A DNA stretch of 36,057 bases from the sequence record SRR20825019_882; one strand, given 5' to 3'. Below are positions 15,691 through 36,057 of the stretch, in pieces. A program made the position numbers and the translations under genes. Within the stretch, counting starts at the first letter, position 1. Each line of letters opens with the position of its first letter. Under the pieces are notes generated by a model, which saw only the letters and a program-made list of their open reading frames with translations, did no database searches and was not told the origin of the DNA.

Positions 15691-15719
15691 ATAAAACCGA
15701 AGTTAAACTTCGGTTTTAT
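15691..15719 (-). terminator. Rho-independent terminator of the 15724-17271 gene
   Basis: ATAAAACCGAAGT-taa-ACTTCGGTTTTAT perfect stem immediately after the stop codon. Confidence 0.85.
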
Positions 15720-17287: not shown

Positions 17288-17319
17288 GTAAGCTTCAAAA
17301 TTAGCATTTTGAAGCTTAC
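17288..17319. promoter_or_regulatory. Perfect 14-bp inverted repeat containing a minus-strand -7 element (TAATTTTG)
   Basis: GTAAGCTTCAAAAT-tagc-ATTTTGAAGCTTAC; CAAAATTA at 17296-17303. Confidence 0.55.
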
Positions 17320-19618: not shown

Positions 19619-20167
19619 TTACGCCTCTGGATTTTTTTCTCTTATGCGTTTGTACATTTTAAAACCAAGCATTAAGATTACAGAAAATAAAATGATGCCT
19701 ATTACGCCGTAAACCCAGTTTACTGCATCTCTTACAATAACTAAGAATATTACTGAAAACAGAATGATTGTGGATCCTTCATTCCATAATCTCATGTGAT
19801 TACTTGTCCATTTTACCACATCGATTTGTAACTCCTTAAATATTAAATGACATTTTACATGATAAGCAATAAGTAAAACAACAAAGCCAAGCTTAACCTG
19901 CATCCAAGGTAAAGAAAGCAGTCCTGGTTGAAGATGAAGTAAGACCAGCGCAAATAGCACAGCAAGTACCGCAGATGGCCACGTGATTATAAACCATAAT
20001 CGTTTTGCCATAAGCTTAAGTTGCTTGCCCAAAATAGATTTTTCTGGCTCATCTTTGCTGAATGCTTCTATTTGATACACAAACAATCTCGGAATGTAGA
20101 ACAGTCCTGCAAACCACGTGATAACGAATATAAGATGCAGACTTTTTATATAAAGGTAATATTCCAT
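19619..20167 (-). CDS. hemJ: Protoporphyrinogen IX oxidase HemJ (CopD-like membrane protein)
   Basis: KSLHLIFVITWFAGLFYIPRLFVY, M.KRL...I..P, W..VKL..V, YH, R.WNE; heme-gene context. Confidence 0.9.
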   Translation of the reverse strand: MEYYLYIKSLHLIFVITWFAGLFYIPRLFVYQIEAFSKDEPEKSILGKQLKLMAKRLWFIITWPSAVLAVLFALVLLHLQPGLLSLPWMQVKLGFVVLLIAYHVKCHLIFKELQIDVVKWTSNHMRLWNEGSTIILFSVIFLVIVRDAVNWVYGVIGIILFSVILMLGFKMYKRIREKNPEA

Positions 20168-23395: not shown

Positions 23396-24763
23396 TTAGT
23401 CTATCTTTAAGTTAGAGGACTTAGGAATCAACTTAGTTCTGATCTCTCTGTTTAAAAATATACCAGTAACAATTGTAGACAACACATCTGCAATTGGAAA
23501 ACTTATCCAAACACCAATTTCTCCAAAATAGTTAGGAAGTATTAAAACTAACGGTATAAAAAAGAAGCCTTGGCGTGTAAGGGTTAATAATAGTGCTGGA
23601 ATAGCTTTTCCTATAGCTTGAAAATAAGCAGAGCCAATTAATTGGATTCCTATTATAGGCACAGCCATAAATACAATGCGCATTGCTGTTGGTGTATCTG
23701 TTAGCACAAGTTCATCATCTGTAAATACGGATACTATTTCTGTAGGGAAAATCATTATAAATGCAAATACAAATAATCCTAAAACACCGGCGTATAATAT
23801 CGCTTTGTTTATACTTTCTCGTACTCTAGGAAACTTATATGCTCCATAATTATAACCAGCTATAGGCAGGAAACCTTGCGTAACACCTAGTACAGGAAAT
23901 AAGGCAAACATTAACATTCTTCCAATAATTGCATACACAGCCACTGAAGACTCTCCTCCCAAATCGAATAAAATATTATTCATTAAAAGATAGGTGATAC
24001 TCACTACAGCCTGTCTAGCTAATGTGACAAAACCTAAAGCAGACATTTCTTTAAGAATTGGCATATTTAAGCCAAAATCTGAAAGGCTTATACGTAACTC
24101 AGAATGTTTAGATAAAAAGAAATACAATATATAGGCAAAACAAAGCACGTAAGATACCGTAGTTGCCAATCCTGCTCCATACATACCCATATCTAGCAGG
24201 TTAATAAATACGTAGTCTAAAACCAAGTTTCCAACTGATGGTATAATCATTGCAATCATTGCAAACTTAGGCTTGCCTTCTGCGCGTATGACGTTGTTTC
24301 CCATCATACTTAACGCAAGTATGGGCACACCATATAATACAATTTTATAGTAAATTTTTGCAGGTTCAAAAATATCGCCCTTACCACCAAATGCAGGAAT
24401 AAGATCATTTATAAAGACTAAGCCTAAAATCACCATGGAAACGGTTAGTAAAAGTGTAACCGTAATCTGATTTCCAAATGTCTTGAGGGCTCGTTTTTTA
24501 TTGTTTGCTCCTAATGCTCTAGATATAATAGATGAGCCACCAATACCTATTGCCATTCCTAATGCTGCGATGAAAAAAGATACAGGAAGTACTACATTTA
24601 TTGCTGCAATAGCTATTGAACCTATCCAGTTTCCTACAAAAATAGTATCGACCAGAATGTTTAGAGACATGACCAAAATACCTATAGACGCTGGTAAGGA
24701 CTGTCTTATAAGTAGTTTGCTAATAGACTTTGTTCCTAAATCTTCTGAACTAAACTTGGCCAT
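23396..24763 (-). CDS. MATE family efflux transporter (MepA-like)
   Basis: About 12 TM helices; VDTIFVG, ISRALGA, IRAEGKPK, NLVLDYVFI, GYNYGA, YFQAIGKA. Confidence 0.93.
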   Translation of the reverse strand: MAKFSSEDLGTKSISKLLIRQSLPASIGILVMSLNILVDTIFVGNWIGSIAIAAINVVLPVSFFIAALGMAIGIGGSSIISRALGANNKKRALKTFGNQITVTLLLTVSMVILGLVFINDLIPAFGGKGDIFEPAKIYYKIVLYGVPILALSMMGNNVIRAEGKPKFAMIAMIIPSVGNLVLDYVFINLLDMGMYGAGLATTVSYVLCFAYILYFFLSKHSELRISLSDFGLNMPILKEMSALGFVTLARQAVVSITYLLMNNILFDLGGESSVAVYAIIGRMLMFALFPVLGVTQGFLPIAGYNYGAYKFPRVRESINKAILYAGVLGLFVFAFIMIFPTEIVSVFTDDELVLTDTPTAMRIVFMAVPIIGIQLIGSAYFQAIGKAIPALLLTLTRQGFFFIPLVLILPNYFGEIGVWISFPIADVLSTIVTGIFLNREIRTKLIPKSSNLKID

Positions 24764-25827
24764 TATGCAATTTGCGTTTCAGCCAAATTTACTGTATTAA
24801 TTGCAGATGGTTTCTCTATCCAATTAGCAATCCAGTTAGACATTACTTTTGCCCAATCATCTCTATCATTAAGGCAAGGAATGGTAGTGAATTCTTTTCC
24901 GCCTACTTCATGGAAAATTTCTTCACCTTCCATAGCAATTTCTTCTAAGGTTTCTAGACAATCACTTACAAATGCTGGTGTTACTATAGCCATATTTTTA
25001 ATACCTTCTTTACCCATACGCTCTATAGTTCTGTCTGTATAAGGTTGTAACCAAGGATCAAAACCTAAACGAGATTGAAATGATGTAGAGAATGTGCCAG
25101 GCTTTAACCCTAATTCTTCTCCTACTAAGCGTGTCGTTTCATAACATTGGTGACGGTAACAAAAACGATGTGCATCACTTTGAGCTTTGCAGCAACTGCC
25201 GTCTATTTGGCAATGAGAATTTGTAATGTCACTTTTGCGAATATGACGCTCTGGAACACCATGATAACTAAATAACAAATGGTCATAATTTGTTGTGTCT
25301 AGCTTCTCTTTAATGCTTCTAGACAACACCTCAATATAATCTGGTTTGTTATAAAATGGCGCTAGGCTTGTTAGTTTAATCTGTGGAAACTTTTCTTTGC
25401 GAAGCTTCTCTGCCAATACCTCTATAGTTTCTGTTGTAGCCATAGCAAACTGAGGATACAAAGGCACTAAAAGAATATCATTAACTCCTTTATCTGTAAG
25501 ACGCTTTAGTGCTTTTTCAATAGTCATAGACCCATAGCGCATAGCTAAATCTATAGGTATTTCTGTTTGCTTTTGAATTTTATCTTGAAGTCTTTCAGAT
25601 AACACAATTAGTGGAGAACCTTCTTCCCACCAAATTTTTGAGTAAGCTTCTGCAGACTTCTTAGGTCTTGTATTTAATACAATACCTTTTACAAGGAATG
25701 CTCGAAACCAATATGGAACATCGATAACTCGAGGATCCATTAAAAATTCGTCTAAGTATTTTTTTACATCTTTCGGGTCGGTACTTTCTGGTGAGCCCAG
25801 ATTAACCAATAAAACACCTTTGCTCAT
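24763..25827 (-). CDS. hemH: Ferrochelatase
   Basis: GVLLVNLGSP, GSPL, AMRYG, PLYPQFA, LFSYHGVP, SFQSRLG..PWLQPYT, FVSDCLETLEEI, PCLND. Confidence 0.97.
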   Translation of the reverse strand: MSKGVLLVNLGSPESTDPKDVKKYLDEFLMDPRVIDVPYWFRAFLVKGIVLNTRPKKSAEAYSKIWWEEGSPLIVLSERLQDKIQKQTEIPIDLAMRYGSMTIEKALKRLTDKGVNDILLVPLYPQFAMATTETIEVLAEKLRKEKFPQIKLTSLAPFYNKPDYIEVLSRSIKEKLDTTNYDHLLFSYHGVPERHIRKSDITNSHCQIDGSCCKAQSDAHRFCYRHQCYETTRLVGEELGLKPGTFSTSFQSRLGFDPWLQPYTDRTIERMGKEGIKNMAIVTPAFVSDCLETLEEIAMEGEEIFHEVGGKEFTTIPCLNDRDDWAKVMSNWIANWIEKPSAINTVNLAETQIA

Positions 25828-25951: not shown

Positions 25952-25987
25952 AAAAAACCTGAAGCGAGTGACTTCAGGTTTTTTTTT
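25952..25987 (-). terminator. Rho-independent terminator (bidirectional type)
   Basis: AAAAAACCTGAAG-cgagtga-CTTCAGGTTTTTT. Confidence 0.88.
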
Positions 25988-26009: not shown

Positions 26010-26750
26010 TTATAATTTTCTTACAGTAGCGTCTCCAAAACTTAAACCTCTGCTTAATTTGGCATTACCTTTATAGGTTACAACAGCTTCTCCATAAGAC
26101 GTAACTTTTAATTTATCTGAAACGTTAAGTTGGAAAGTGCCTTCGCCATAAGCTGTTAATTTGGTTTCCTTATTATCTACATTTATTGCATTTAACTTAG
26201 ATTCACCATATGCTCTAATTTGTTGATAGTTTGTAGTCCCACTTTCAATCATAATGTAGCTTTCACCATAGGTTGCAATTTTAAGATTCTCAACTTCAAT
26301 TTCTTTCATGTATACTTGAGAGTCTCCATAAACACTTAATTTTAAGTCTTTTGCTTCTACATTATCTACAAAATCAAAACGCTCTTCGCCTCTTAATGAT
26401 AATGCACTTATAGTAGTATATGTTATCGTAGCTTTTACTACTGTACCATTATATACATCTTTTCTAATATTATTATTTTTCTCAGATTTAGTGTAAACTC
26501 TTGCATCATCTAAATATAGCTCTAGAGTCTCATCGTCTACCTCAACATTAAGCTTGTCTAAGGATTCTGTGCTGCTCTCGATAACTACAGAAGCTTTGTC
26601 ACCCTTTATAAATGTAACTTGTATGTGTGGATTTATAGTAATCTTATTAAAATTTGATACGTCATAAGTCTTTGTCTGTGCGCTTACAGAAAATACAGAT
26701 GCTAAAATTAAAGTTGAAAAAGCTATAATGTGTTTAATAGTAACTCTCAT
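26010..26750 (-). CDS. Head GIN domain (DUF2807) secreted beta-helix protein
   Basis: Signal peptide SVSA-Q; F.KI.I, repeated L....YG.S/G units, closing V.YKGN...G.A.VRKL. Confidence 0.8.
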   Translation of the reverse strand: MRVTIKHIIAFSTLILASVFSVSAQTKTYDVSNFNKITINPHIQVTFIKGDKASVVIESSTESLDKLNVEVDDETLELYLDDARVYTKSEKNNNIRKDVYNGTVVKATITYTTISALSLRGEERFDFVDNVEAKDLKLSVYGDSQVYMKEIEVENLKIATYGESYIMIESGTTNYQQIRAYGESKLNAINVDNKETKLTAYGEGTFQLNVSDKLKVTSYGEAVVTYKGNAKLSRGLSFGDATVRKL

Positions 26751-26816: not shown

Positions 26817-27707
26817 TTAACTAAGTGCCATCACATATTTCTTGGGAGTAGTTCCATATTTCTTTTTAAATGCAGAAATAAAGTGACTTGCAGTACTGTA
26901 ACCCACTTTTAAGCCCACTTCATTTACATTGTGTGAGCCGCTTTCTAAAAGTTGTCGTGCTACTTCCATTTTATAATCAAACAAGAAACTAAAAACTGAG
27001 TCTCCATAAATTTGCTTAAAGCCTTCTTTTAATTTATTTAAGCTTAATTGTATTTCATCTGCTAACTCTTGTAAAGTTGGTGGTTCTGCCATGCGAGCAA
27101 TAATAATTTGCTTGGCTTTTTTAATTTTCGCAACATTATCTTCGTCTACCAGAAATGGGCATTGTTCAATATCTGCATTAGCTGGCCTATTAAAATAAAG
27201 GCTTAACAGTTCATAAGCTTTTCCTTTAAAGTATAGCGCTTGTATAGATGGATGCAAATTATAGTTCATAAGTTGGTTAAGCACAACTGCCATAGATGGT
27301 GAAATAATCTCGTCTTTATAGTACTTTCTATCCTTATTCTCTGCCGTTAAGAATGTAATATAGTTGGCCTCTGTAGAAAATAATGAGTGAAATTTTTTGA
27401 TAGGAATAAGTACCGAAACCACCCAAGAATCTTTTTCAATAGTAAGATCCATAGGCAAATCTCGCTGAGGATTGTAAAGTAATATGGAGTGCTCTTCATG
27501 TAATGGCAGTTGGTAACCACCATCATTAAATGCTAATTGAGCAGCACCTTTCACGCAAAAATGAAATTGTATAAAATCTCTACTTACTTCACGTATAAAC
27601 TGCTTGCTATCAGTCGTTTCATTTTGTAACCTCAGCACATAAAAACCATCTTCTATATGTGTTTCTTTAACCAAACTTTCAGCGTTATTTTTTATTGAAT
27701 GATCCAT
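26817..27707 (-). CDS. AraC family transcriptional regulator, divergent from hemA
   Basis: C-terminal double HTH: PPTLQELA...LNKLKEGFKQIYG, A.QLL, VNEVGLKVGYSTASHFISAFKKKYGTTPKKY. Confidence 0.95.
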   Translation of the reverse strand: MDHSIKNNAESLVKETHIEDGFYVLRLQNETTDSKQFIREVSRDFIQFHFCVKGAAQLAFNDGGYQLPLHEEHSILLYNPQRDLPMDLTIEKDSWVVSVLIPIKKFHSLFSTEANYITFLTAENKDRKYYKDEIISPSMAVVLNQLMNYNLHPSIQALYFKGKAYELLSLYFNRPANADIEQCPFLVDEDNVAKIKKAKQIIIARMAEPPTLQELADEIQLSLNKLKEGFKQIYGDSVFSFLFDYKMEVARQLLESGSHNVNEVGLKVGYSTASHFISAFKKKYGTTPKKYVMALS

Positions 27708-27722
27708 CGTTTTAAAAGCTAT

Positions 27723-27745
27723 TTATTTAGAATAGTTCTAAATAA
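27723..27745. promoter_or_regulatory. Fur-box-like perfect palindrome upstream of araC
   Basis: TTATTTAGAA-TAG-TTCTAAATAA (10-3-10); core resembles the flavobacterial Fur box ATTTAGAATnATTCTAAAT as I recall it. Confidence 0.75.
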
Positions 27746-27876
27746 TTTTAATATATACCTTGTTTCCCACCACTAAATTAGCTGAATTGCTTCAAATTTT
27801 ACCATTTTTAGATAATTTTCTGCGCCTATCGTTACAAATCGTACTTCTAGCGTTATTTTTTAAAAACTCTTCACTC

Positions 27877-27884
27877 TACATTTG
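27877..27884 (+). promoter_or_regulatory. hemA promoter -7 element (TACATTTG)
   Basis: TAnnTTTGC, 11 nt before ATG 27896; no TTTG at the -33 position. Confidence 0.7.
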
Positions 27885-27895
27885 CATCCGTCTTT

Positions 27896-29164
27896 ATGAT
27901 ACAAAACTTGAAGCGACATTTTCCCCAAGCGGCTAACGCCAATTTTTTTGCCATCGGTCTTAATTACAAAAAAGCCGATGCCGAAATACGTGGTCATTTT
28001 AGTATTTCTGAGCAAGCACAATCTGCAATTTTACAGCAAGCTAAAGATGATGGCATTCCTGCCATTGTTGTAATCTCTACGTGTAACAGAACAGAGATTT
28101 ATGGTTTTGCAAAAGACGAGATTCAACTCATTAAGTTACTTTGTGAGCACACTCATGGTACTGTAGATGAGTTTAAGAATGTCTCTTACATTTACAAGAA
28201 TACAATAGCTATAGATCATCTTTTTAAAGTAGGTACTGGTTTAGACAGCCAAATTCTCGGTGATTTCGAAATTATCTCACAACTACGACACGGTTTTAAA
28301 CAATCTAAAAAGATTGGTATGATTAATCCGTTTATGGAGCGATTAATTAATGCCGTTATACAAGCAAGCAAGCGCATAAAAAATGAAACAGAGATTTCTA
28401 GCGGTGCAACATCTGTAAGCTTTGCTTCTGTACAATATATATTGGCTAGAGTTCCTTATGTATCAGAAAAAAACATATTGCTATTCGGTACAGGTAAAAT
28501 AGGTAGAAATACGTGTGAAAACCTTATAAAACATACCAATAACGAACATATTACACTTATAAACAGAACTAAAGGCAAAGCTGAAAAAATTGCCGGAAAG
28601 TTTAACTTAGTTGTAAAAGATTATGCAGATATACAGTCTGAGATTTCTTCTTCAGACATACTAATAGTTGCAACTGGTGCGCAACAACCTACCATTAATA
28701 AAGATTTATTATTTCTTAAAAAGCCTTTATTAATTTTAGATTTATCTATTCCTAAAAATGTTTCAGAAGACGTTAAGGATTTAGATAATGTTACGTTGGT
28801 TCATTTAGATGATTTATCTGCCATTACAGACAAAACTTTAGAAAAGCGTTCTAAACAAATTCCGCAGGCAGAGCAAATAATTGCTGAGATTAAAGAAGAA
28901 TTTGATGCTTGGCTAAAAACAAGAAAGTTTGCACCTACTATAAAAGCACTAAAAGGGAAGCTTAATGATTTAAAAGATGCTGAAATAGATTTTCAGAGCA
29001 AGAAGATTAAAGACTTTAATCAACAACAAGCAGAAATTATTAGCAACCGTCTTATTCAAAAAATTACCACACAGTTTGCCAACCATCTTAAAAGTGAAGG
29101 TAAAACTATTGATGAAAGTTTAGAGATGATTCAACGTGTGTTTCACTTAGAAGATAACGTATAA
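27896..29164 (+). CDS. hemA: Glutamyl-tRNA reductase
   Basis: STCNRTEIY catalytic Cys, HLFKV..GLDSQILGDFEI, GTGKIG, INRT, DLSIPKNV. Confidence 0.97.
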   Translation: MIQNLKRHFPQAANANFFAIGLNYKKADAEIRGHFSISEQAQSAILQQAKDDGIPAIVVISTCNRTEIYGFAKDEIQLIKLLCEHTHGTVDEFKNVSYIYKNTIAIDHLFKVGTGLDSQILGDFEIISQLRHGFKQSKKIGMINPFMERLINAVIQASKRIKNETEISSGATSVSFASVQYILARVPYVSEKNILLFGTGKIGRNTCENLIKHTNNEHITLINRTKGKAEKIAGKFNLVVKDYADIQSEISSSDILIVATGAQQPTINKDLLFLKKPLLILDLSIPKNVSEDVKDLDNVTLVHLDDLSAITDKTLEKRSKQIPQAEQIIAEIKEEFDAWLKTRKFAPTIKALKGKLNDLKDAEIDFQSKKIKDFNQQQAEIISNRLIQKITTQFANHLKSEGKTIDESLEMIQRVFHLEDNV

Positions 29165-30081
29165 TGAGTAAAGTAATACGCATAGGTACTAGAGATAGTG
29201 AGTTGGCATTATGGCAAGCTAATACTGTAAAAGCACAACTAGAAAACTTAGGCTACAAAACTGTACTTGTACCAGTTAAGTCGACTGGAGATTTAATTTT
29301 AGATCAGCCACTTTATGAATTGGGCATTACCGGTATTTTCACAAAGACATTAGATGTGGCTATGGTTAACGGCGATGTTGATATTGCTGTACACAGCATG
29401 AAAGATGTCCCTACAGCATTACCAAAAGGTATCATGCAAGGTGCTGTTTTAAAACGTGCTACCACTAAAGACATACTAGTACATAAAGGGTTAGATTTTT
29501 TAGATGCAGAAGGAACTATTGCTACAGGAAGTTTACGCAGAAAAGCACAATGGTTAAATAAATATCCAAATCATAAGGTTGTAGATTTAAGAGGTAATGT
29601 GAATACAAGACTTCAAAAATTAGAAGACAATTCTTGGAACGGAGCTATTTTTGCCAAAGCAGGTTTAACACGTATAAATGTATTGCCTGAGCATTTTATT
29701 GAGTTAGATTGGATGCTACCTGCACCAGCACAAGGTGCTATGGTTATTGCAGTTATGGAGCAGGATGTATTTTGTAAAGAAGCTGTTTCCAAACTTAATG
29801 ATCACTCTTCAGAAATTTGTACCACAATAGAACGAGAATTCTTAAAAACTTTAGAAGGTGGCTGTACTGCTCCAATTGGTGCTTTAGCAGTTATTGAGGA
29901 TAAGGACATTTGGTTTAGAGGTTGTTTATTTAGTTTAGATGGCAAACAAAAACTAGAAATTGAGAAGCGAGTATCTCTTAAAGAAAATCGTAATCTGGGT
30001 AGAAATTGTGCTATCGAGATTTTAGATCAAGGTGGTAAAGATCTTATGGCAGATATTAAAGCTTCGCTAGACAAATCATAA
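29164..30081 (+). CDS. hemC: Hydroxymethylbilane synthase
   Basis: RIGTRDSELALWQA, DIAVHSMKDVP, TGSLRR, LRGNVNTRL, LPAPAQGA, LEGGCTAPIG. Confidence 0.97.
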   Translation: MSKVIRIGTRDSELALWQANTVKAQLENLGYKTVLVPVKSTGDLILDQPLYELGITGIFTKTLDVAMVNGDVDIAVHSMKDVPTALPKGIMQGAVLKRATTKDILVHKGLDFLDAEGTIATGSLRRKAQWLNKYPNHKVVDLRGNVNTRLQKLEDNSWNGAIFAKAGLTRINVLPEHFIELDWMLPAPAQGAMVIAVMEQDVFCKEAVSKLNDHSSEICTTIEREFLKTLEGGCTAPIGALAVIEDKDIWFRGCLFSLDGKQKLEIEKRVSLKENRNLGRNCAIEILDQGGKDLMADIKASLDKS

Positions 30082-30082
30082 A

Positions 30083-30736
30083 ATGGCTAGTATATTATCT
30101 ACCAAAATTCTTACACGCTCACAACGAGAGTTGGTTTTAAATACAGGAATTGGTCTGGTAGAATATAATGCCATAAACATTTCATTTACAAAGGTTAGTT
30201 TACCAAAAAAGATAGAGAATGGTATTTTTACTAGTCAAAATGCTGTTGCTGCTATAAAAGAAAAAAATATTGAGATTGAACACGTGTTTTGTGTAGGGCA
30301 AAACACTAGGAAAGCTTTAGAAAATCTAGGATATAACGTCATGTTACACGCAGAACATGCTAGAGCGTTGGGACAAAAAATTACAACTCAATATCCAGAA
30401 GCAAAATTTACTTTTTTCTGTGGAAATAAAAGAAGAGATGCATTACCAGAGCTTTTACACAAATATAATATAAACCTTACGGAGATAGAAGTTTACAAAA
30501 CAAGTTTAAACATAAAAGAATTCCAAAGAACATTTAATGCCATTATGTGTTTTAGTCCTAGTGGTGTACAAAGTTATTTTGGAGCAAATAAGCCACAAAA
30601 AGAAACTATTGTCTGTATTGGTAATACTACAGCTACGGCAGCAAAGCTCTATACAGATCAAATTGCAATTGCTAACACAACCTCGATTGAAAGTGTTATA
30701 GCAAAGACAGTAAAGGTTTTAAATAAGACATTTTGA
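30083..30736 (+). CDS. hemD: Uroporphyrinogen-III synthase
   Basis: [30 protein letters not shown]; between hemC and hemE. Confidence 0.92.
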
Positions 30737-30743
30737 TATAGTT

Positions 30744-31775
30744 ATGATAAAAAACGATTTATTTTTAAAAGCATTAAGAGGCGAGTCTGTTGAGCGTCCT
30801 CCAGTTTGGATGATGAGACAAGCAGGTCGTTATCTGCCAGAATTTATGGAGCTTAAGCACAAGTATGATTTCTTTACGCGTTGCCAAACTCCAGAATTAG
30901 CAAGTGAAATTACAGTGCAACCTATACGCCGATATGGTATGGATGCTGCTATTTTGTTTTCAGACATATTAGTTATCCCTCAAGCTATGAATATAGATGT
31001 AAAGATGAAGCCAGGCGTTGGTCCTTGGCTACCTACACCTATACGCACAGCAAAACAAGTAGAGCAAGATGTTATTGTCCCTAATATAGATGAAACCTTA
31101 GGTTATGTAATGGATGCTATTACTATGACTAAGGAAAAACTTAACAATGAAGTACCATTAATTGGTTTTGCAGGCTCACCTTGGACCATTTTATGTTATT
31201 GTGTACAAGGGCAAGGCTCTAAAAACTTTGATAAAGCTAAAGAGTTTTGTTTTACTCAACCCGTTGCTGCTCATTTATTGCTTCAAAAAATAACAGATAC
31301 TACTATAGCGTATTTAAAGCGTAAAGTTGAAACTGGTGTAAATGCAGTACAAGTTTTTGATTCTTGGGGCGGCATGTTATCTCCAGTAGATTATCAGGAA
31401 TTTAGCTGGCAATACATTCAACAAATTATTGATGCCTTAAAAGATATGGCACCAGTAATTGCATTTGGAAAAGGCTGTTGGTTTGCTTTAGACGAGATGA
31501 GCAAAAGTGGCGCATCTGCATTAGGGGTAGATTGGACAATAACTGCAGAAAATGCCAGAAAATTTACTAACAACAGTATAACACTTCAAGGTAATTTTGA
31601 CCCTACGCGTTTGTTCTCACCACCAAAAGAAATTAAGCTTATGGTTACTGAAATGATTGATGCTTTTGGTAAAGACAAGTACATAGTTAATTTAGGACAT
31701 GGTATTTTACCCAATATCCCTATTGAAAATGCAGGTGCATTTATTGAAGCTGTTAAGGAATATAAAAGTAAATAG
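30744..31775 (+). CDS. hemE: Uroporphyrinogen decarboxylase
   Basis: [53 protein letters not shown]. Confidence 0.98.
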
Positions 31776-31859
31776 TGATTTAATCTTGTCTCATTTAAGT
31801 GTATTAAAATAAAGACACAGATTTCTATAGAAATAAAGAGGTTCTAAACGATTAAGACT

Positions 31860-32336
31860 ATGAAAATCTGGTCCAGACTTAAAAAACTAAGTATAAAGCA
31901 ATTACTAAATTTAGGAGTTGTTTTTATACAACGTCCCTTGTTAATTCGCCCAACGCTTAAAGCTACCTCTAAGACTATGTCTATCTCTCAAAAGGAGTTT
32001 GGTAGTGCACAACATAAAAATGGAAAACCAAATGCATTTAGACATGCGTTATGGAACATTCTTTTGGCAAAAGTAGCTTACACAAAAAATGAGACAGCAG
32101 CAACAGGTTGGGCAGAACAAGTAACTACACTTCACGAAAAACTAGCACCTAATGCACCATTAGAAACTGTTATGGATTTACATAATAATATGGTAGGACG
32201 TCAGTTTTTTTCTGAAGCTTTAGATCTATCTGAAAAGGAATTAATTCAGTTTTTAAAAGAGAAGTCTAGTAATGCAAAACAAATTACCAAGGTAGAAGAC
32301 GTAGAGCGTTATCCTAATGAATTGGTTTATATTTAA
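31860..32336 (+). CDS. Hypothetical protein, DUF6973-like
   Basis: NAFRHALWN...HE...MDLHNN.VGR motif pattern. Confidence 0.65.
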   Translation: MKIWSRLKKLSIKQLLNLGVVFIQRPLLIRPTLKATSKTMSISQKEFGSAQHKNGKPNAFRHALWNILLAKVAYTKNETAATGWAEQVTTLHEKLAPNAPLETVMDLHNNMVGRQFFSEALDLSEKELIQFLKEKSSNAKQITKVEDVERYPNELVYI

Positions 32337-32339
32337 GCT

Positions 32340-33083
32340 ATGATAACATCAGTTTTTAAATCAATATCAGCCTACAGAAGTAGTTTCAGTTTAATTTCTA
32401 AATTAAAACTGTGGAAATACTTTGCTATCCCAATGGTTATTAGTTTTGTTACAGCTATGCTAATAGGAATTTCTGCTTGGGGATTGTCAGACAATATCGG
32501 TTCACTTATTTCTAAAGCTTGGATCTGGGATTGGGGCAAGGCAACATTTACTACAATTAGCACTGTTTTAGGTGGTCTTATAATTATTGCAATTGGCCTT
32601 ATACTTTACAAACACATTGTTATGGCATTAAGTGCGCCATTTATGAGTCCTGTTTCAGAAAAGATTGAGCAGCATTTTAACCCTCAAGCAGTTCATTCAC
32701 ACAGAGATACAAACAATGCACAACAATTATGGCGAGGTATAAAAATTAACGTGCGTAATCTTACTATGGAGTTATTGTTAACAGTGCCTATCCTACTTAT
32801 AGGGTTTATACCAGTTGTAGGTATTTTCTCTACTGTATTATTGTATGCTGTTCAAGCTTATTATGCAGGGTTTGGAAATATGGACTATACATTGGAGCGT
32901 CATTATAATTATATAGAAAGTATTTCATTTGTAAAACAAAATAGAGGCTTAGCCATAGGCAATGGTCTGGTGTTTATACTATTTCTTTTTATACCAATCA
33001 TAGGTATTATTCTGGTATTACCATTATCTGTAACTGCAGCAAGTAAGGTAACGCTAGAAAAGCTTCACAATGAGAAATTATGA
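32340..33083 (+). CDS. EI24/CysZ-like membrane protein
   Basis: Several TM helices; SAPFMSPVSEKIE, FIPVVG, GF..MDY.LER, FIPIIG. Confidence 0.82.
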   Translation: MITSVFKSISAYRSSFSLISKLKLWKYFAIPMVISFVTAMLIGISAWGLSDNIGSLISKAWIWDWGKATFTTISTVLGGLIIIAIGLILYKHIVMALSAPFMSPVSEKIEQHFNPQAVHSHRDTNNAQQLWRGIKINVRNLTMELLLTVPILLIGFIPVVGIFSTVLLYAVQAYYAGFGNMDYTLERHYNYIESISFVKQNRGLAIGNGLVFILFLFIPIIGIILVLPLSVTAASKVTLEKLHNEKL

Positions 33084-33670
33084 TGCTTGAAAAACGGATA
33101 ATTAATCAATTGGAGGAGTATTTTAATAGTCCAAAGGCTAGTTTCGAATCAATAGCTTTAGTTATTGTCAATTTAAGAATGTTGATTGAAATTAAAGAGG
33201 TGGCTAATGATTATCCAAAAGTTAAATTCTATTGTGATTGGTTTCTTCATTCAAAGCTAAGTTGGAATTCTGCAAAAGAAGTAGTGTTAAAAATTAAAGC
33301 TGCTATAATTGAAACTGAACTTAAGGATGACTTTCTTCTACAAGTGAGTAAAATAATTGGAGTACAAGAATTTGTAATTGAACTAAAAGAAATAATTTAT
33401 AAATACCTAAAGTCTAGGAATAATATAGATGATGATAGATTTTGGATAGATTTTTTAAAACTGTACCTTAATTTGATTACTCATAAGCCAATACTTTTTT
33501 CAAAAGAAATGAAAAGCTTAGATATGTCTGATATTGGATTTGACTTTAAAATATATGGTCTTCAGTTTGTTGATTATGAGGACTCTTTTAAGATTGAAAT
33601 ATTATCCGAACAACTAGAGGCATCAAATAAAAATTTGTATTTGGATTATAATTTATACAGAGAAAATTAA
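33080..33670 (+). CDS. Hypothetical protein, very low GC (likely acquired)
   Basis: 196-aa ORF overlapping the previous stop (ATGA); sampled lines 33361 and 33421 each have 13/60 GC; FYCDWFLH motif. Confidence 0.7.
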   Translation: MMLEKRIINQLEEYFNSPKASFESIALVIVNLRMLIEIKEVANDYPKVKFYCDWFLHSKLSWNSAKEVVLKIKAAIIETELKDDFLLQVSKIIGVQEFVIELKEIIYKYLKSRNNIDDDRFWIDFLKLYLNLITHKPILFSKEMKSLDMSDIGFDFKIYGLQFVDYEDSFKIEILSEQLEASNKNLYLDYNLYREN

Positions 33671-33722
33671 TATCAAGCACGAATAAATAAAACATGATTT
33701 CCGTTTTCCGGGAACTAAAAAG

Positions 33723-34625
33723 ATGAAAGACAAATTCTACAACTACATACAAACATTACAAGATACCATTACTGCAAAGCTAGAAGCGGTTGATGGCAAG
33801 GCCAAGTTTAAAGAAGACCTTTGGGAGCGCGAAGAAGGTGGCGGTGGCAGAAGCCGAGTTATAGAAAATGGAGATGTATTTGAAAAAGGCGGTGTGAATA
33901 TTTCTAAAGTTCACGGACCGTTAAACCCAGCAATGCAAAAATACTTTAACGTTGGCGATGTTAATTTTTTTGCGTGTGGCTTAAGTTTAGTATTACATCC
34001 TAAAAACCCTTTTGCGCCAACTGTACATGCAAACTGGCGTTATTTCGAAATGTATGAGAAAGACGGCACTTTGGTAGACAGTTGGTTTGGTGGCGGTCAA
34101 GATTTAACACCGTATTATTTGTTTGAGGAAGACGCTATTCATTTTCATAGCATTTGCAAATCTGTTTGTGATGCTCACGACCCTTCATTTTATGCGCTAT
34201 ACAAAAAACAATGTGACGACTATTTTTATAATGCTCATCGCGATGAAGCTAGAGGTTTAGGTGGTTTGTTTTTTGATCATTGTAAAGCAACACCAGAACG
34301 AAGTATGACAGATTGGTATAACTTTGTTACACAAGTGGGTGATAGTTTTTTAGATGCTTATGTGCCTATTGTAGAGAAAAGAAAAGATATACCGTTTACA
34401 CCAGAACAACGCGATTGGCAAGAAATAAGACGCGGTCGTTATATAGAGTTTAATTTAATACATGATAAAGGCACGTTGTTTGGCTTAAAAACAAACGGAC
34501 GTATAGAAAGTATTTTTATGAGCTTTCCGCCTCACGTACAATGGCGCTATAATTACGAACCAGAAAAAGGTACCAAAGAAGACAAATTATTACACGTATT
34601 AAAACACCCTAAAGATTGGGTTTAA
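33723..34625 (+). CDS. hemF: Oxygen-dependent coproporphyrinogen III oxidase
   Basis: GGGRSRV, FEKGGVNIS, HPKNP.APTVHANWRYF, WFGGGQDLTP, RRGRYIEFNL..DKGT.FGL. Confidence 0.97.
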   Translation: MKDKFYNYIQTLQDTITAKLEAVDGKAKFKEDLWEREEGGGGRSRVIENGDVFEKGGVNISKVHGPLNPAMQKYFNVGDVNFFACGLSLVLHPKNPFAPTVHANWRYFEMYEKDGTLVDSWFGGGQDLTPYYLFEEDAIHFHSICKSVCDAHDPSFYALYKKQCDDYFYNAHRDEARGLGGLFFDHCKATPERSMTDWYNFVTQVGDSFLDAYVPIVEKRKDIPFTPEQRDWQEIRRGRYIEFNLIHDKGTLFGLKTNGRIESIFMSFPPHVQWRYNYEPEKGTKEDKLLHVLKHPKDWV

Positions 34626-34636
34626 ACACAATTAAA

Positions 34637-35284
34637 ATGAAGCATATTTTCACAATACTAATCTTACTAATTACACTTAGTTCTTGTAAGAATAATAAAG
34701 AATTGGACATCTTATCAGATCCTGAGCCTTTAACAGAACTTAAATCACAAGAAGAGCACATGAGAGCTGCAGTAACCTATTTAACAGCTAGCAGAATAGA
34801 TGATGCTTTAAAGGAACTAACACAATGTATTAGAACTTACCATAACGAGCGCGCTTACATTATGAAAAGCGACATTCTTCTAAGAGAGAAGAGATACCAA
34901 GAGTATTTAGAAAATACAGAAGACGCCATGCGCTTCGAAGAATTTCAATCACCTACACTTTTTATGCATAATGGTTTAGGTTATGAACTTACTGGCGAAG
35001 AAGATAAGGCAAAGCCATTTTATGAGAAAGCATTGTTAAGGTGGACGCTAAACGGAACAACTCAAGAAAATTACAGACAAGTGCTAACACAAAAACCATT
35101 TTTAACAGCAGTGGTGTTTGGTAAAGACGTAGCCTTAAAAGACTTTGATAAAATCTTTTCAGATTTTGGTAAAACCCGCCAAGATACTATCATAAGAGAA
35201 CAATTTAGACCATTGCTAGAAACCTATGACGGTACAGGAATGAGTTATTTTTATTTTGAAATTGAAAAAAATCCTACAGAATAA
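34637..35284 (+). CDS. TPR-like lipoprotein
   Basis: MKHIFTILILLITLSS-C lipobox from ATG 34637; TPR-like helices (GLGYELTGEEDKAKPFYEKAL). Confidence 0.7.
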   Translation: MKHIFTILILLITLSSCKNNKELDILSDPEPLTELKSQEEHMRAAVTYLTASRIDDALKELTQCIRTYHNERAYIMKSDILLREKRYQEYLENTEDAMRFEEFQSPTLFMHNGLGYELTGEEDKAKPFYEKALLRWTLNGTTQENYRQVLTQKPFLTAVVFGKDVALKDFDKIFSDFGKTRQDTIIREQFRPLLETYDGTGMSYFYFEIEKNPTE

Positions 35285-36057
35285 TGTATCCATTAAGACG
35301 TAACCGAAGATTAAGAACTAACGCATCTATTAGAGGATTAGTTAGAGAAACCATGCTTTCACCTAATGATTTTATTGTACCACTTTTTATTACTGAAGGC
35401 TCTGGCGTAAAAGATGAAATAGCATCTATGCCAAATTATTACAGATATAGCTTAGATCTTTTAAAGGCAGAAGTAAAGTCGCTTTGGGATTTAGGGTTGC
35501 GTTCTGTGCTTTTATTTGTTAAAGTTCCCAATAACTTAAAAGACAACGCAGGAACAGAAGCATTAAATCCAGATGGACTAATGCAACGCGCCATAAAGAC
35601 CGTAAAAGATACATGTCCAGATATGGTTGTTATGACAGATGTGGCGTTAGACCCATATTCAATTTTTGGTCATGATGGTGTTGTGGGTGATGGCCAAATA
35701 ATAAACGACGACACTAATGCAATCTTGGCAGAAATGTCTTTATCTCATGCTAAAGCAGGTGCAGATATAGTTGCACCAAGTGATATGATGGATGGACGTA
35801 TTTTCGAAATTCGTAGCTTGTTAGAAGATGAAGGTTTTCATAATACCGGTATTATGAGTTATTCGGCTAAATATGCCTCTGCATTTTATGGACCATTTAG
35901 AGACGCTTTGGCATCTGCTCCTGTAGATGTAAAAGATGTTCCTAAGGATAAACAAAGTTACCAAATGGATCCAGCGAATAGAGACGAAGCCATTAAGGAA
36001 ACTATTATGGACGTACAAGAAGGTGCAGATATCGTTATGGTAAAACCAGGACTTTGT
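35284..36057 (+). CDS. hemB: Porphobilinogen synthase (ALA dehydratase); truncated by window end and absent from the ORF track
   Basis: ATG 35284: MYPLRRNRRLR..., DVALDPYSIFGHDG, GADIVAPSDMMDGR, MSYSAKYASAFYGPFRDA, EGADIVMVKPG. Confidence 0.97.
   Translation, partial: MYPLRRNRRLRTNASIRGLVRETMLSPNDFIVPLFITEGSGVKDEIASMPNYYRYSLDLLKAEVKSLWDLGLRSVLLFVKVPNNLKDNAGTEALNPDGLMQRAIKTVKDTCPDMVVMTDVALDPYSIFGHDGVVGDGQIINDDTNAILAEMSLSHAKAGADIVAPSDMMDGRIFEIRSLLEDEGFHNTGIMSYSAKYASAFYGPFRDALASAPVDVKDVPKDKQSYQMDPANRDEAIKETIMDVQEGADIVMVKPGLC

Follow-up and report, generated by a model that had tools for sequence, protein, structure and literature searches.

A conserved control region with a Fur-box-like palindrome and candidate AraC operators between araC and hemA in Flavobacteriaceae

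The stretch of DNA from sequence record SRR20825019_882 (36,057 nt, G+C 35%), the whole of which is termed the window in the following, encodes an AraC/XylS-family regulator (araC) that is oriented divergently to hemA, the gene for glutamyl-tRNA reductase (Table 1). The two genes are separated by 188 bp, as described in a first-pass annotation made from the sequence alone. According to this annotation, Fur sets the level of a dedicated AraC-type regulator of the hem genes, and the conservation of the araC-hemA pairing and of a palindrome in the gap was named as a check. The heme biosynthesis supercluster pointed out there was recovered as well, with hemA, hemC, hemD, hemE, hemF and hemB on the plus strand and hemH and a HemJ-family gene on the minus strand. 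The gap and the first codons of araC contain a perfect palindrome (P1) resembling a Fur box, three direct-repeat half-sites (S0, S1 and S2) with the core C-N6-CG-nn-A-y, and a putative promoter for each of the two genes.

Table 1. Coordinates of genes, promoter elements and candidate operator sites in the window. Positions relative to transcription starts refer to the putative starts of araC and hemA described in the text.
Feature	Position	Strand	Description or sequence	Position relative to putative start
HemJ-family (UPF0093) gene	19619-20167	minus	Pfam 134 bits, threshold passed	
hemH, ferrochelatase	24763-25827	minus	Pfam Ferrochelatase; TIGR00109 253 bits, above cut-off; 3' of araC, same strand	
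DUF2807 gene	26010-26750	minus	between araC and hemH	
araC	26817-27707	minus	296 amino acids, AraC/XylS-family regulator; open reading frame listing and Pfam	
Cys183-Pro184 codons	27156-27161	minus	residues 181-186 EQCPFL, in disordered interdomain linker	
S0	27676-27693	plus	CTTTCAGCGTTATTTTTT; distal half-site within araC codons 6-9, opposite sense	+76 to +93 from araC start
araC-hemA divergent gap	27708-27895		188 bp	
P1	27723-27745		10-3-10; arms 27723-27732 and 27736-27745, 100% complementary; 3-nt spacer	about +24 to +46 from araC start
P1 19-nt core	27725-27743		ATTTAGAATAGTTCTAAAT; Fur-box-like operator candidate	
Candidate araC -7 box	27773-27780	minus	TAATTTAG, one-off variant; family consensus TATTTTTG	
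S1	27823-27837	plus	CGCCTATCGTTACAA; promoter-distal member of adjacent pair	core about -66 to -54 from hemA start; CG near -62 from araC start
S2	27844-27861	plus	CTTCTAGCGTTATTTTTT; promoter-proximal, over -33 zone of hemA promoter	core about -45 to -33 from hemA start; CG near -83 from araC start
hemA -7 box	27877-27884	plus	TACATTTG; family consensus TActTTTG, conserved	
hemA, glutamyl-tRNA reductase	27896-29164	plus	422 amino acids; Pfam GlutR_N, Shikimate_DH, GlutR_dimer	
hemC	29164-30081	plus	Pfam Porphobil_deam	
hemD	30083-30736	plus	Pfam HEM4; Pfam threshold only	
hemE	30744-31775	plus	Pfam URO-D	
hemF	33723-34625	plus	Pfam Coprogen_oxidas	
Tetratricopeptide repeat (TPR) protein gene	34616-35284	plus	between hemF and hemB	
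hemB	35284 to window end (36057), incomplete	plus	Pfam ALAD	

Conserved sites of the araC-hemA control region

For comparison, a degenerate-pattern scan with one genome per species yielded 592 relatives, of which the best 80 loci were kept (67 to 78% protein identity). The gene hemA is the divergent upstream neighbor of araC in 79 of these 80 loci, the exception (L017) having only 200 bp of upstream DNA, and hemC follows hemA in 75 of them. Both start codons could be set in 73 loci, and the 69 of these with a gap of at most 220 nt were aligned with the window. Conserved blocks in this alignment are P1, a CAAAAATA block, a long block of the form aaCGAyAy-N15-GCGTTAyTTTTT and the hemA -7 box. 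The motifs hold 1.3 to 1.5 bits per position compared to 0.2 to 0.3 bits in the spacers between them, the lengths of which are fixed. Judged by this comparison, the 188-bp gap together with the first araC codons is a single control region for heme synthesis, rigid in layout and common to the family.

The palindrome reported earlier proved to be a perfect 10-3-10 palindrome (TTATTTAGAA-TAG-TTCTAAATAA) starting 15 nt from the araC ATG. Of 5000 simulated versions of the 188-bp gap (first-order Markov model), 31 contained a perfect palindrome with 10-nt arms spaced by 0 to 6 nt. The whole window contains five such palindromes, whereas simulated windows (30 simulations) had 0.43 on average. With up to three mismatches allowed, the pattern of P1 is found in the window at P1 alone. 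The core TTTAGA-N5-TCTAAA adjoins the araC start in all 80 loci (59 exact, 18 with one mismatch and three with two mismatches), and a single one-mismatch match to it was found in the remaining locus DNA compared (528,385 bp). Throughout the 81 sequences the arms of P1 are kept in sequence and the center is variable.

The likeness of the palindrome core to the Fur box of Flavobacteriales, which had been suggested before, is close. The 19-nt core is identical at 17 of 19 positions to ATTTAGAATTATTCTAAAT, the Fur box of Riemerella anatipestifer, a member of the Weeksellaceae, and identity to this consensus amounts to 14 to 18 of 19 positions in all 81 sequences. In the available text of PMC5609570 (Guo et al. 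2017), ATTTAGAATTATTCTAAAT is derived from genes altered in an R. anatipestifer fur mutant, and Fur gel shifts are given for four promoter fragments with boxes located 9 to 91 nt from the start codons, a range that the distance of P1 to the araC ATG fits. The accessible part of PMC10986502 (2024) gives the box as ATTTAGAATTATCCTAAAT and describes Fe2+-dependent binding of Fur to a 194-bp promoter with such a box. P1 thus resembles the R. anatipestifer boxes in being a 19-nt palindrome less than 100 nt from a start codon; unlike P1, the latter are described upstream of iron- and hemin-uptake genes, and neither AraC nor hem genes are mentioned in the accessible parts of PMC5609570 and PMC10986502. 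The likeness of the motif suggests that P1 is a Flavobacteriales-type Fur operator to which Fur binds.

A second palindrome, P2 (AAATATGAyA-N2-4-TrTCATATTT), was observed in the araC-hemA gap of relatives, e.g. L005 and L056, where it is located between the putative -7 and -33 elements of the araC promoter. With a strict pattern, P2 was recovered in 33 of the 80 loci and with a loose one in 37, and the strict pattern occurs nowhere else in the loci. P2 looks closer than P1 to the classical Fur-family consensus. It is absent from the window, in which the equivalent zone is located at about 27781 to 27810. In many genera, a second repressor may act on araC via P2.

The phased direct repeats mentioned in the first-pass annotation are located on the hemA promoter and comprise CGTTAC from 27830, CGTAC from 27840 and GCGTTAT from 27850, the outer two of which are conserved and lie in S1 and S2. 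The S2 pattern was found in 79 sequences (it failed in L023 and L035), and in 76 of these the CG dinucleotides of S1 and S2 are exactly 21 bp apart. S2 is the best-conserved block of the gap, and in sequences stacked on it the distance from its CG to the TA of the hemA -7 box is constant. In S1, the C at -7, the CG and the A at +4 are conserved to 98 to 100%; the same invariant positions are common to the logos of S0, S1 and S2. The third half-site, S0, is located inside the araC gene. A repeat finder paired positions 27675 to 27694 in araC with positions 27843 to 27862 (90% identical, 168 bp apart). The distance between S0 and S2 is 165 to 170 bp in 77 of the 79 sequences with a mode of 167 bp, and the 168 bp in the window correspond to 16 turns of 10.5 bp. 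The Fur-like box and S2 are 121 to 125 bp apart in 75 of the 79 sequences. S0, S1 and S2 are presumably bound by the neighboring AraC protein.

The CG of S0 is held at the nucleotide level by a constraint on synonymous codons, since the wobble C is fixed while the encoded residue varies. The residue preceding the alanine at S0 is valine in 37, isoleucine in 27, asparagine in 14 and threonine in two of the 80 loci, and its codon ends in C in all of them, whereas C-ending codons account for 20% of these amino acids elsewhere in araC. Alanine is encoded by GCT in 76 loci (background 27%). Relative to the codon usage of the gene itself, the constraint corresponds to a binomial P of about 1e-56, uncorrected for shared ancestry. 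Even though the counts are not phylogenetically independent of each other, the varying residue indicates repeated substitution under constraint.

A weight matrix of the S1-S2 pair scored 41 at the pair itself, and no other place in the window reached 8. In the related loci, the matrix gave one weak match outside the control region, which is the S0 site of L049. The pattern of a single half-site matched ten times in the window compared to 5.4 times expected, with four of the matches in the control region, and half-site matches 3' of araC share no position among the loci. A look-alike termed S3 (CTTGAAGCGACATTT, 27907 to 27921 on the plus strand, hemA codons 4 to 9), 63 bp (3 x 21) from S2, is not conserved in 78 loci and was discarded as a product of chance or as lineage-specific.

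The hemA promoter has a -7 box, TACATTTG, and no TTTG at -33, as stated in the first-pass annotation. The use made of the missing TTTG there, namely as a sign that the promoter needs an activator, is weak, since among 241 probable promoters of Flavobacterium johnsoniae the -33 motif is described as 'much less evident' than the -7 element (PMC6847099, available text). The CAAAAATA block conserved in the footprint of the gap reads TATTTTTG on the araC strand and, from its likeness to the consensus TAnnTTTG, is probably the araC -7 box. When the numbering given for the F. johnsoniae -7 element TAnnTTTG (T-12 A-11 ... G-5; accessible part of PMC6847099) is applied, transcription of hemA would start near 27889 and that of araC near 27768; these positions derive from consensus matches and not from mapped transcript ends. 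A scan of the gap for sigma-70 promoters gave two hits compared to a mean of 2.4 expected from shuffled sequences. Its model is wrong for this phylum, and the result was not used.

The AraC-type protein

The araC gene product matched the Pfam helix-turn-helix families HTH_18 (65.7 bits, cut-off 33.6; E 4.6e-18; residues 215 to 291) and HTH_AraC (33 bits, cut-off 26.6). None of the NCBIfam equivalogs matches, the best score being 54 bits compared to a cut-off of 200. For the N-terminal residues 1 to 190, no Pfam family including AraC_binding was found, and the Atlas clusters closest to this half consist of unnamed proteins from Bacteroidota. A model computed with AlphaFold2 from 32 sequences (mean predicted local distance difference test score, pLDDT, 86.6) comprises a beta-rich domain (residues 13 to 102), helices up to residue 172, a linker (175 to 187, pLDDT <50) and a DNA-binding domain from residue 189 onwards. 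The best full-length Foldseek matches of this model are ToxT, Rns and CsvR (PDB 4mlo, 6xiv and 9gfp; E 3.5e-13 to 1.3e-8, 13 to 17% identity). Whole-chain template modeling (TM) scores to these proteins are low (0.31 to 0.41), because the orientation of the domains differs, while the C-terminal domain superposes on the DNA-binding domains of AraC, AdpA and YesN with TM-scores of 0.78 to 0.86. On the basis of the model, the regulator is a full-length AraC protein of the ToxT/Rns fold. It shares with ToxT, Rns and CsvR the beta-rich N-terminal domain, the helices and the double helix-turn-helix domain; the latter three, in contrast, are fatty-acid-binding virulence regulators.

The 120 best matches listed for the protein show 74 to 99% identity and include the named genera Aequorivita, Dokdonia, Leeuwenhoekiella, Ulvibacter, Patiriisocius, Cochleicola and Marixanthomonas. 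Furthermore, 106 representatives of 50%-identity clusters matched the AraC protein at E <=1e-30. The conservation of the protein is unusually high for a local regulator.

The linker of the predicted structure contains a Cys-Pro motif, Cys183-Pro184, with the consensus C-P-F/Y-L/I. Both residues are conserved to at least 90% in the 32-sequence alignment. In an alignment of 101 sequences, which consists of the protein of the window and 100 cluster representatives of 270 to 350 amino acids among 150 listed, the cysteine is present in 65 and the proline in 69, and the motif is lost in the most distant clusters. Most of the subfamily retains it, including members with 35 to 47% identity. In heme-regulatory motifs, Cys-Pro precedes a hydrophobic residue within a flexible stretch of the chain, and Cys183-Pro184 could be such a motif. 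It is the only feature that suggests the regulator might respond to heme. In Bradyrhizobium, Irr, a protein of the Fur family that is degraded on heme binding, contains a Cys-Pro heme-regulatory motif. Like Irr, the AraC-type protein would be a Cys-Pro-containing regulator proposed to couple heme synthesis to iron; unlike in Irr, the motif is located in the linker of an AraC protein, and heme binding is putative here.

Proposed regulation and competing explanations

The arrangement of the sites suggests that Fur controls araC and that the AraC protein in turn controls the hemA operon and its own gene via a looping layout similar to that of araC-araBAD, a reading to which a probability of roughly 0.6 is assigned. 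Iron-loaded Fur at P1 would lower the transcription of araC, because of the position of P1 relative to the likely araC start (Table 1). The AraC protein at S1 and S2 would set the transcription of hemA, hemC, hemD and hemE, probably through hemF and hemB, while S0 would permit autoregulation, a DNA loop enclosing the Fur-like box and the araC promoter, or both. A ligand might toggle the AraC protein between its states, the best candidate being heme or a tetrapyrrole, possibly sensed via the Cys-Pro motif of the linker. In 64 of the 80 loci hemH is located 3' of araC on the same strand. The gap between araC and hemH is at most 260 nt in 35 of these 64 loci and 7 to 19 nt in six, and because of this short gap a co-transcription of hemH with araC is implied for the latter six. 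With hemH joined to the araC transcript, the Fur-like box would govern this gene too, and Fur would lower the transcription of hemH together with that of araC. The wiring from Fur via AraC to the hem genes put forward in the first-pass annotation is well supported by the comparative evidence, as the pairing, the palindrome and the operator-like repeats are conserved; the argument for an activator and the responsiveness to heme, which were part of the same proposal, did not hold up equally well and are hypothetical.

Concerning the sign of the regulation, the geometry of the sites fits an activator and a brake equally well. S2 abuts the -33 zone of the hemA promoter, which is the geometry of a class-II activator. 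A brake on hemA would suit a regulator released from repression at low iron and, with more ferrochelatase, would leave less free porphyrin; moreover, loops mostly strengthen repression. Following the logic of Irr and DtxR-HrrA, a brake would avoid the build-up of porphyrins. Our guess is that the regulator attenuates hemA under iron scarcity, at about even odds compared to an activator and with a slight lean to the brake.

A looped iron and heme switch would go further than the proposal made above. The AraC protein would bridge S0 and S1, the resulting loop would contain the araC promoter and the Fur-like box, and hemA would be off. Fur would report iron and heme at the Cys-Pro motif the end product, which together would decide between the loop and the occupation of S1 and S2. 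This mechanism is speculative and, in our opinion, rather unlikely. If it were true, the choice of the N-terminal codons of a regulator would be dictated by its own operator.

Several features of the proposed regulation are known from other systems. In E. coli, araC-araBAD is controlled by the adjacent half-sites araI1 and araI2 and the distal site araO2, forming a 'light switch' loop. The locus described here resembles this system in the divergent regulator gene, in the 21-bp direct-repeat half-sites abutting the upstream element of the promoter, in a third half-site that is located far upstream, in helical phase and inside the transcribed region of the regulator, and in a site for a global regulator in between, which is CRP in E. 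coli and would be a Fur-like box here. The two-domain protein with a flexible linker is also common to both. In contrast to araC-araBAD, the distal site is part of the coding sequence (codons 6 to 9) and is located at a distance of about 168 bp compared to about 210 bp. Its regulator has a ToxT/Rns-like N-terminal domain with no match to the Pfam family AraC_binding, the target is heme synthesis, and looping, dimerization and the ligand are putative. AraC-type regulators of iron acquisition that are repressed by Fur include PchR, YbtA, AlcR and RhrA. As with these, a site for an iron repressor is found here on a local AraC-family gene, with an adjacent iron-related cluster as the target; unlike in these systems, the neighboring genes are hem genes and not genes for siderophore synthesis or uptake, and no NCBIfam equivalog is reached at its cut-off.

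Known iron-coupled regulators of heme synthesis include Irr, HrrSA and HemKR. For Corynebacterium glutamicum, a cascade is described in which DtxR represses hrrA, the product of which acts as a repressor of hemA, hemE and hemH (available text of PMC7337898). As in the DtxR-HrrSA system, an iron regulator is proposed here to repress the gene of a heme-related regulator that controls hem genes. HrrA differs in that it is the response regulator of a two-component system, and DtxR is not Fur; homology to the proteins considered here is lacking, and the organism belongs to another phylum.

Several points weigh against the control of araC by Fur and of hemA by the AraC protein. The R. anatipestifer Fur box is a prediction backed by gel shifts of whole fragments, with no footprint or mutagenesis seen in the accessible texts, and the Riemerella literature is inconsistent, an E. 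coli-type consensus (GATAATGATAATCATTATC) being quoted in the abstract of PMC5609570 and, in the part available, in PMC7976709 (2021). Neither a fur gene nor iron-uptake genes were found in the window, which otherwise contains housekeeping genes, and therefore the P1 motif has no cross-check there. Searches of the window and the related loci gave no pair of S-type sites preceding hemH or other hem genes, so that the regulon of the AraC protein may be just the hemA operon. In the window, hemH is parted from araC by the DUF2807 gene and a terminator-like hairpin. If the AraC protein were an activator, its repression by Fur at plentiful iron would defy simple physiological logic. Finally, all 80 loci belong to Flavobacteriaceae or unclassified close kin, and the counts given for them are not phylogenetically independent.

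The disagreement of the papers on a Riemerella consensus that is itself predicted would favor the explanation that P1 is the operator of another dimeric regulator, either a paralogue of the Fur family or an unrelated helix-turn-helix dimer, and that the link to iron is spurious. The same is true for the lack of a second P1 copy in the window, due to which none is tied to an iron gene, and for P2, a different palindrome that is more similar to the classical Fur consensus and is found in a large part of the loci. This explanation is considered improbable with regard to the identity of P1 to the Riemerella consensus in every sequence compared, its distance to the start codon, which is in the range of the Riemerella boxes, and the Fe2+-dependent Fur binding reported for a promoter with a near-identical box (PMC10986502, accessible part). 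A role of P1 as an RNA hairpin in the araC leader, by which translation or mRNA stability would be controlled, has even less in its favor. The palindrome is probably located in the transcribed leader and could form a 10-bp stem there, but the fold energy of the leader is ordinary (z = -1.11; an equal or better fold in 28 of 200 shuffles) and no Rfam family was found at the gathering score. The conserved pairs of P1 each retain one base-pair type without compensatory change across the 81 sequences, more than half of which lack pairing at the two innermost positions. Since the arms are conserved without covariation and the RNA fold is unremarkable, P1 is best read as a protein-binding site in the DNA and not as an RNA structure; the hairpin was rejected as extremely improbable.

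The half-sites might be bound by another factor or be part of an UP-like promoter architecture, with the AraC protein regulating something else. The T-run of S2 falls in the AT-rich zone that F. johnsoniae promoters commonly show near -28 (available text of PMC6847099), and the T-run of S0 doubles as the Lys-Asn codons of the conserved N-terminal arm. The invariant C at -7, CG and A at +4 are, however, located outside the T-runs in all three sites, and the constraint on the wobble C of S0 cannot be an effect at the protein level. Direct repeats spaced by 21 bp at a promoter are typical for the AraC family, as known from araI1-araI2, and the sites and the araC gene co-occur in 77 to 79 of the 79 sequences. 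Binding by another factor is therefore given little weight. It could further be argued that araC and hemA are neighbors by inherited gene order only and that the conserved blocks reflect slow divergence instead of function, which would suit the restriction of the compared loci to Flavobacteriaceae. This view is very improbable in light of the divergence of the spacers in between the conserved motifs, the spacing that is fixed within about 2 bp over roughly 170 bp, and the synonymous-site constraint at S0, the P value of which takes no account of shared ancestry.

The preferred reading, i.e. control of araC by Fur and of the hemA operon by the AraC protein, combines elements that are known in kind, namely cascades of Fur and AraC-type regulators, looping by AraC, iron-coupled regulators of heme synthesis and the Riemerella Fur box. 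In the full-text literature, outside of which most subscription journals fall, no AraC-family regulator of hem genes in Bacteroidota, no Fur box on such a gene and no operator in its codons were found. A search for the Fur-box motif gave only two Riemerella papers. The full-text literature also gave no relevant paper on the adjustment of heme synthesis to the supply of iron in aerobic Bacteroidota. The control region suggests that marine flavobacteria couple heme production to iron in a manner not described so far. In iron-limited waters, marine Flavobacteriaceae are among the major degraders of algal carbon, and a Fur-linked control of heme synthesis would be relevant to their respiration under iron stress. 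The locus provides a concrete hypothesis for the whole family, with the exact bases of the operators and a candidate sensor residue. The intragenic operator S0 overlaps coding sequence, and sites of this kind would be missed by annotation pipelines and codon-based selection tests. Furthermore, the region might serve as an iron- or heme-responsive promoter tool in a phylum for which few genetic parts are available.

Further genes and minor observations

The genes following hemA on the plus strand are hemC, hemD, hemE, a DUF6973 gene, a gene for a CysZ/EI24-like membrane protein, a gene for a 196-amino-acid protein, hemF, the TPR protein gene and hemB. The assignment of hemA is supported by a score of 276 bits to NCBIfam TIGR01035 (cut-off 209.55). 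TIGR00212 and TIGR01464 scored above their cut-offs within the hemC-hemD-hemE stretch, as did NF003727 and NF006762 within the hemF-hemB stretch. Since the gaps between plus-strand genes from 27800 to 36057 contain no terminator-like site, a single long operon from hemA to hemB is possible. Inside the string of hem genes, the DUF6973, CysZ/EI24-like and 196-amino-acid proteins (31860 to 33670) and the TPR protein have no known role in heme synthesis; the 196-amino-acid protein gave no match in Pfam or NCBIfam.

On the minus strand, araC is followed by the DUF2807 gene, hemH and a gene for a MATE transporter, with the HemJ-family gene located farther on. The latter scored 117.4 bits to NCBIfam TIGR00701, which is below the cut-off of 138.05, and its product is a probable protoporphyrinogen oxidase. 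Since none of the 80 related loci contains the DUF2807 gene, it is taken as a lineage-specific insertion by which hemH is uncoupled from araC. A hairpin resembling a terminator (AACCTGAAG-TCACTCG-CTTCAGGTT) was read by eye at 25956 to 25980 on the minus strand, with a T-tract to 25952; it was not listed by the terminator scan.

An inverted repeat of 12 nt (GCTTCAAATTTT at 27789 to 27800 and AAAACTTGAAGC at 27903 to 27914; 92% complementary, 102 nt apart) flanks the hemA promoter and start codon. Besides P1, perfect palindromes with arms of at least 10 nt are located at 301 to 326, 15693 to 15717, 17291 to 17316 and 35838 to 35857. The first three are terminator-like and located at gene ends, while the last one (TCATAATACCGGTATTATGA) lies within hemB.

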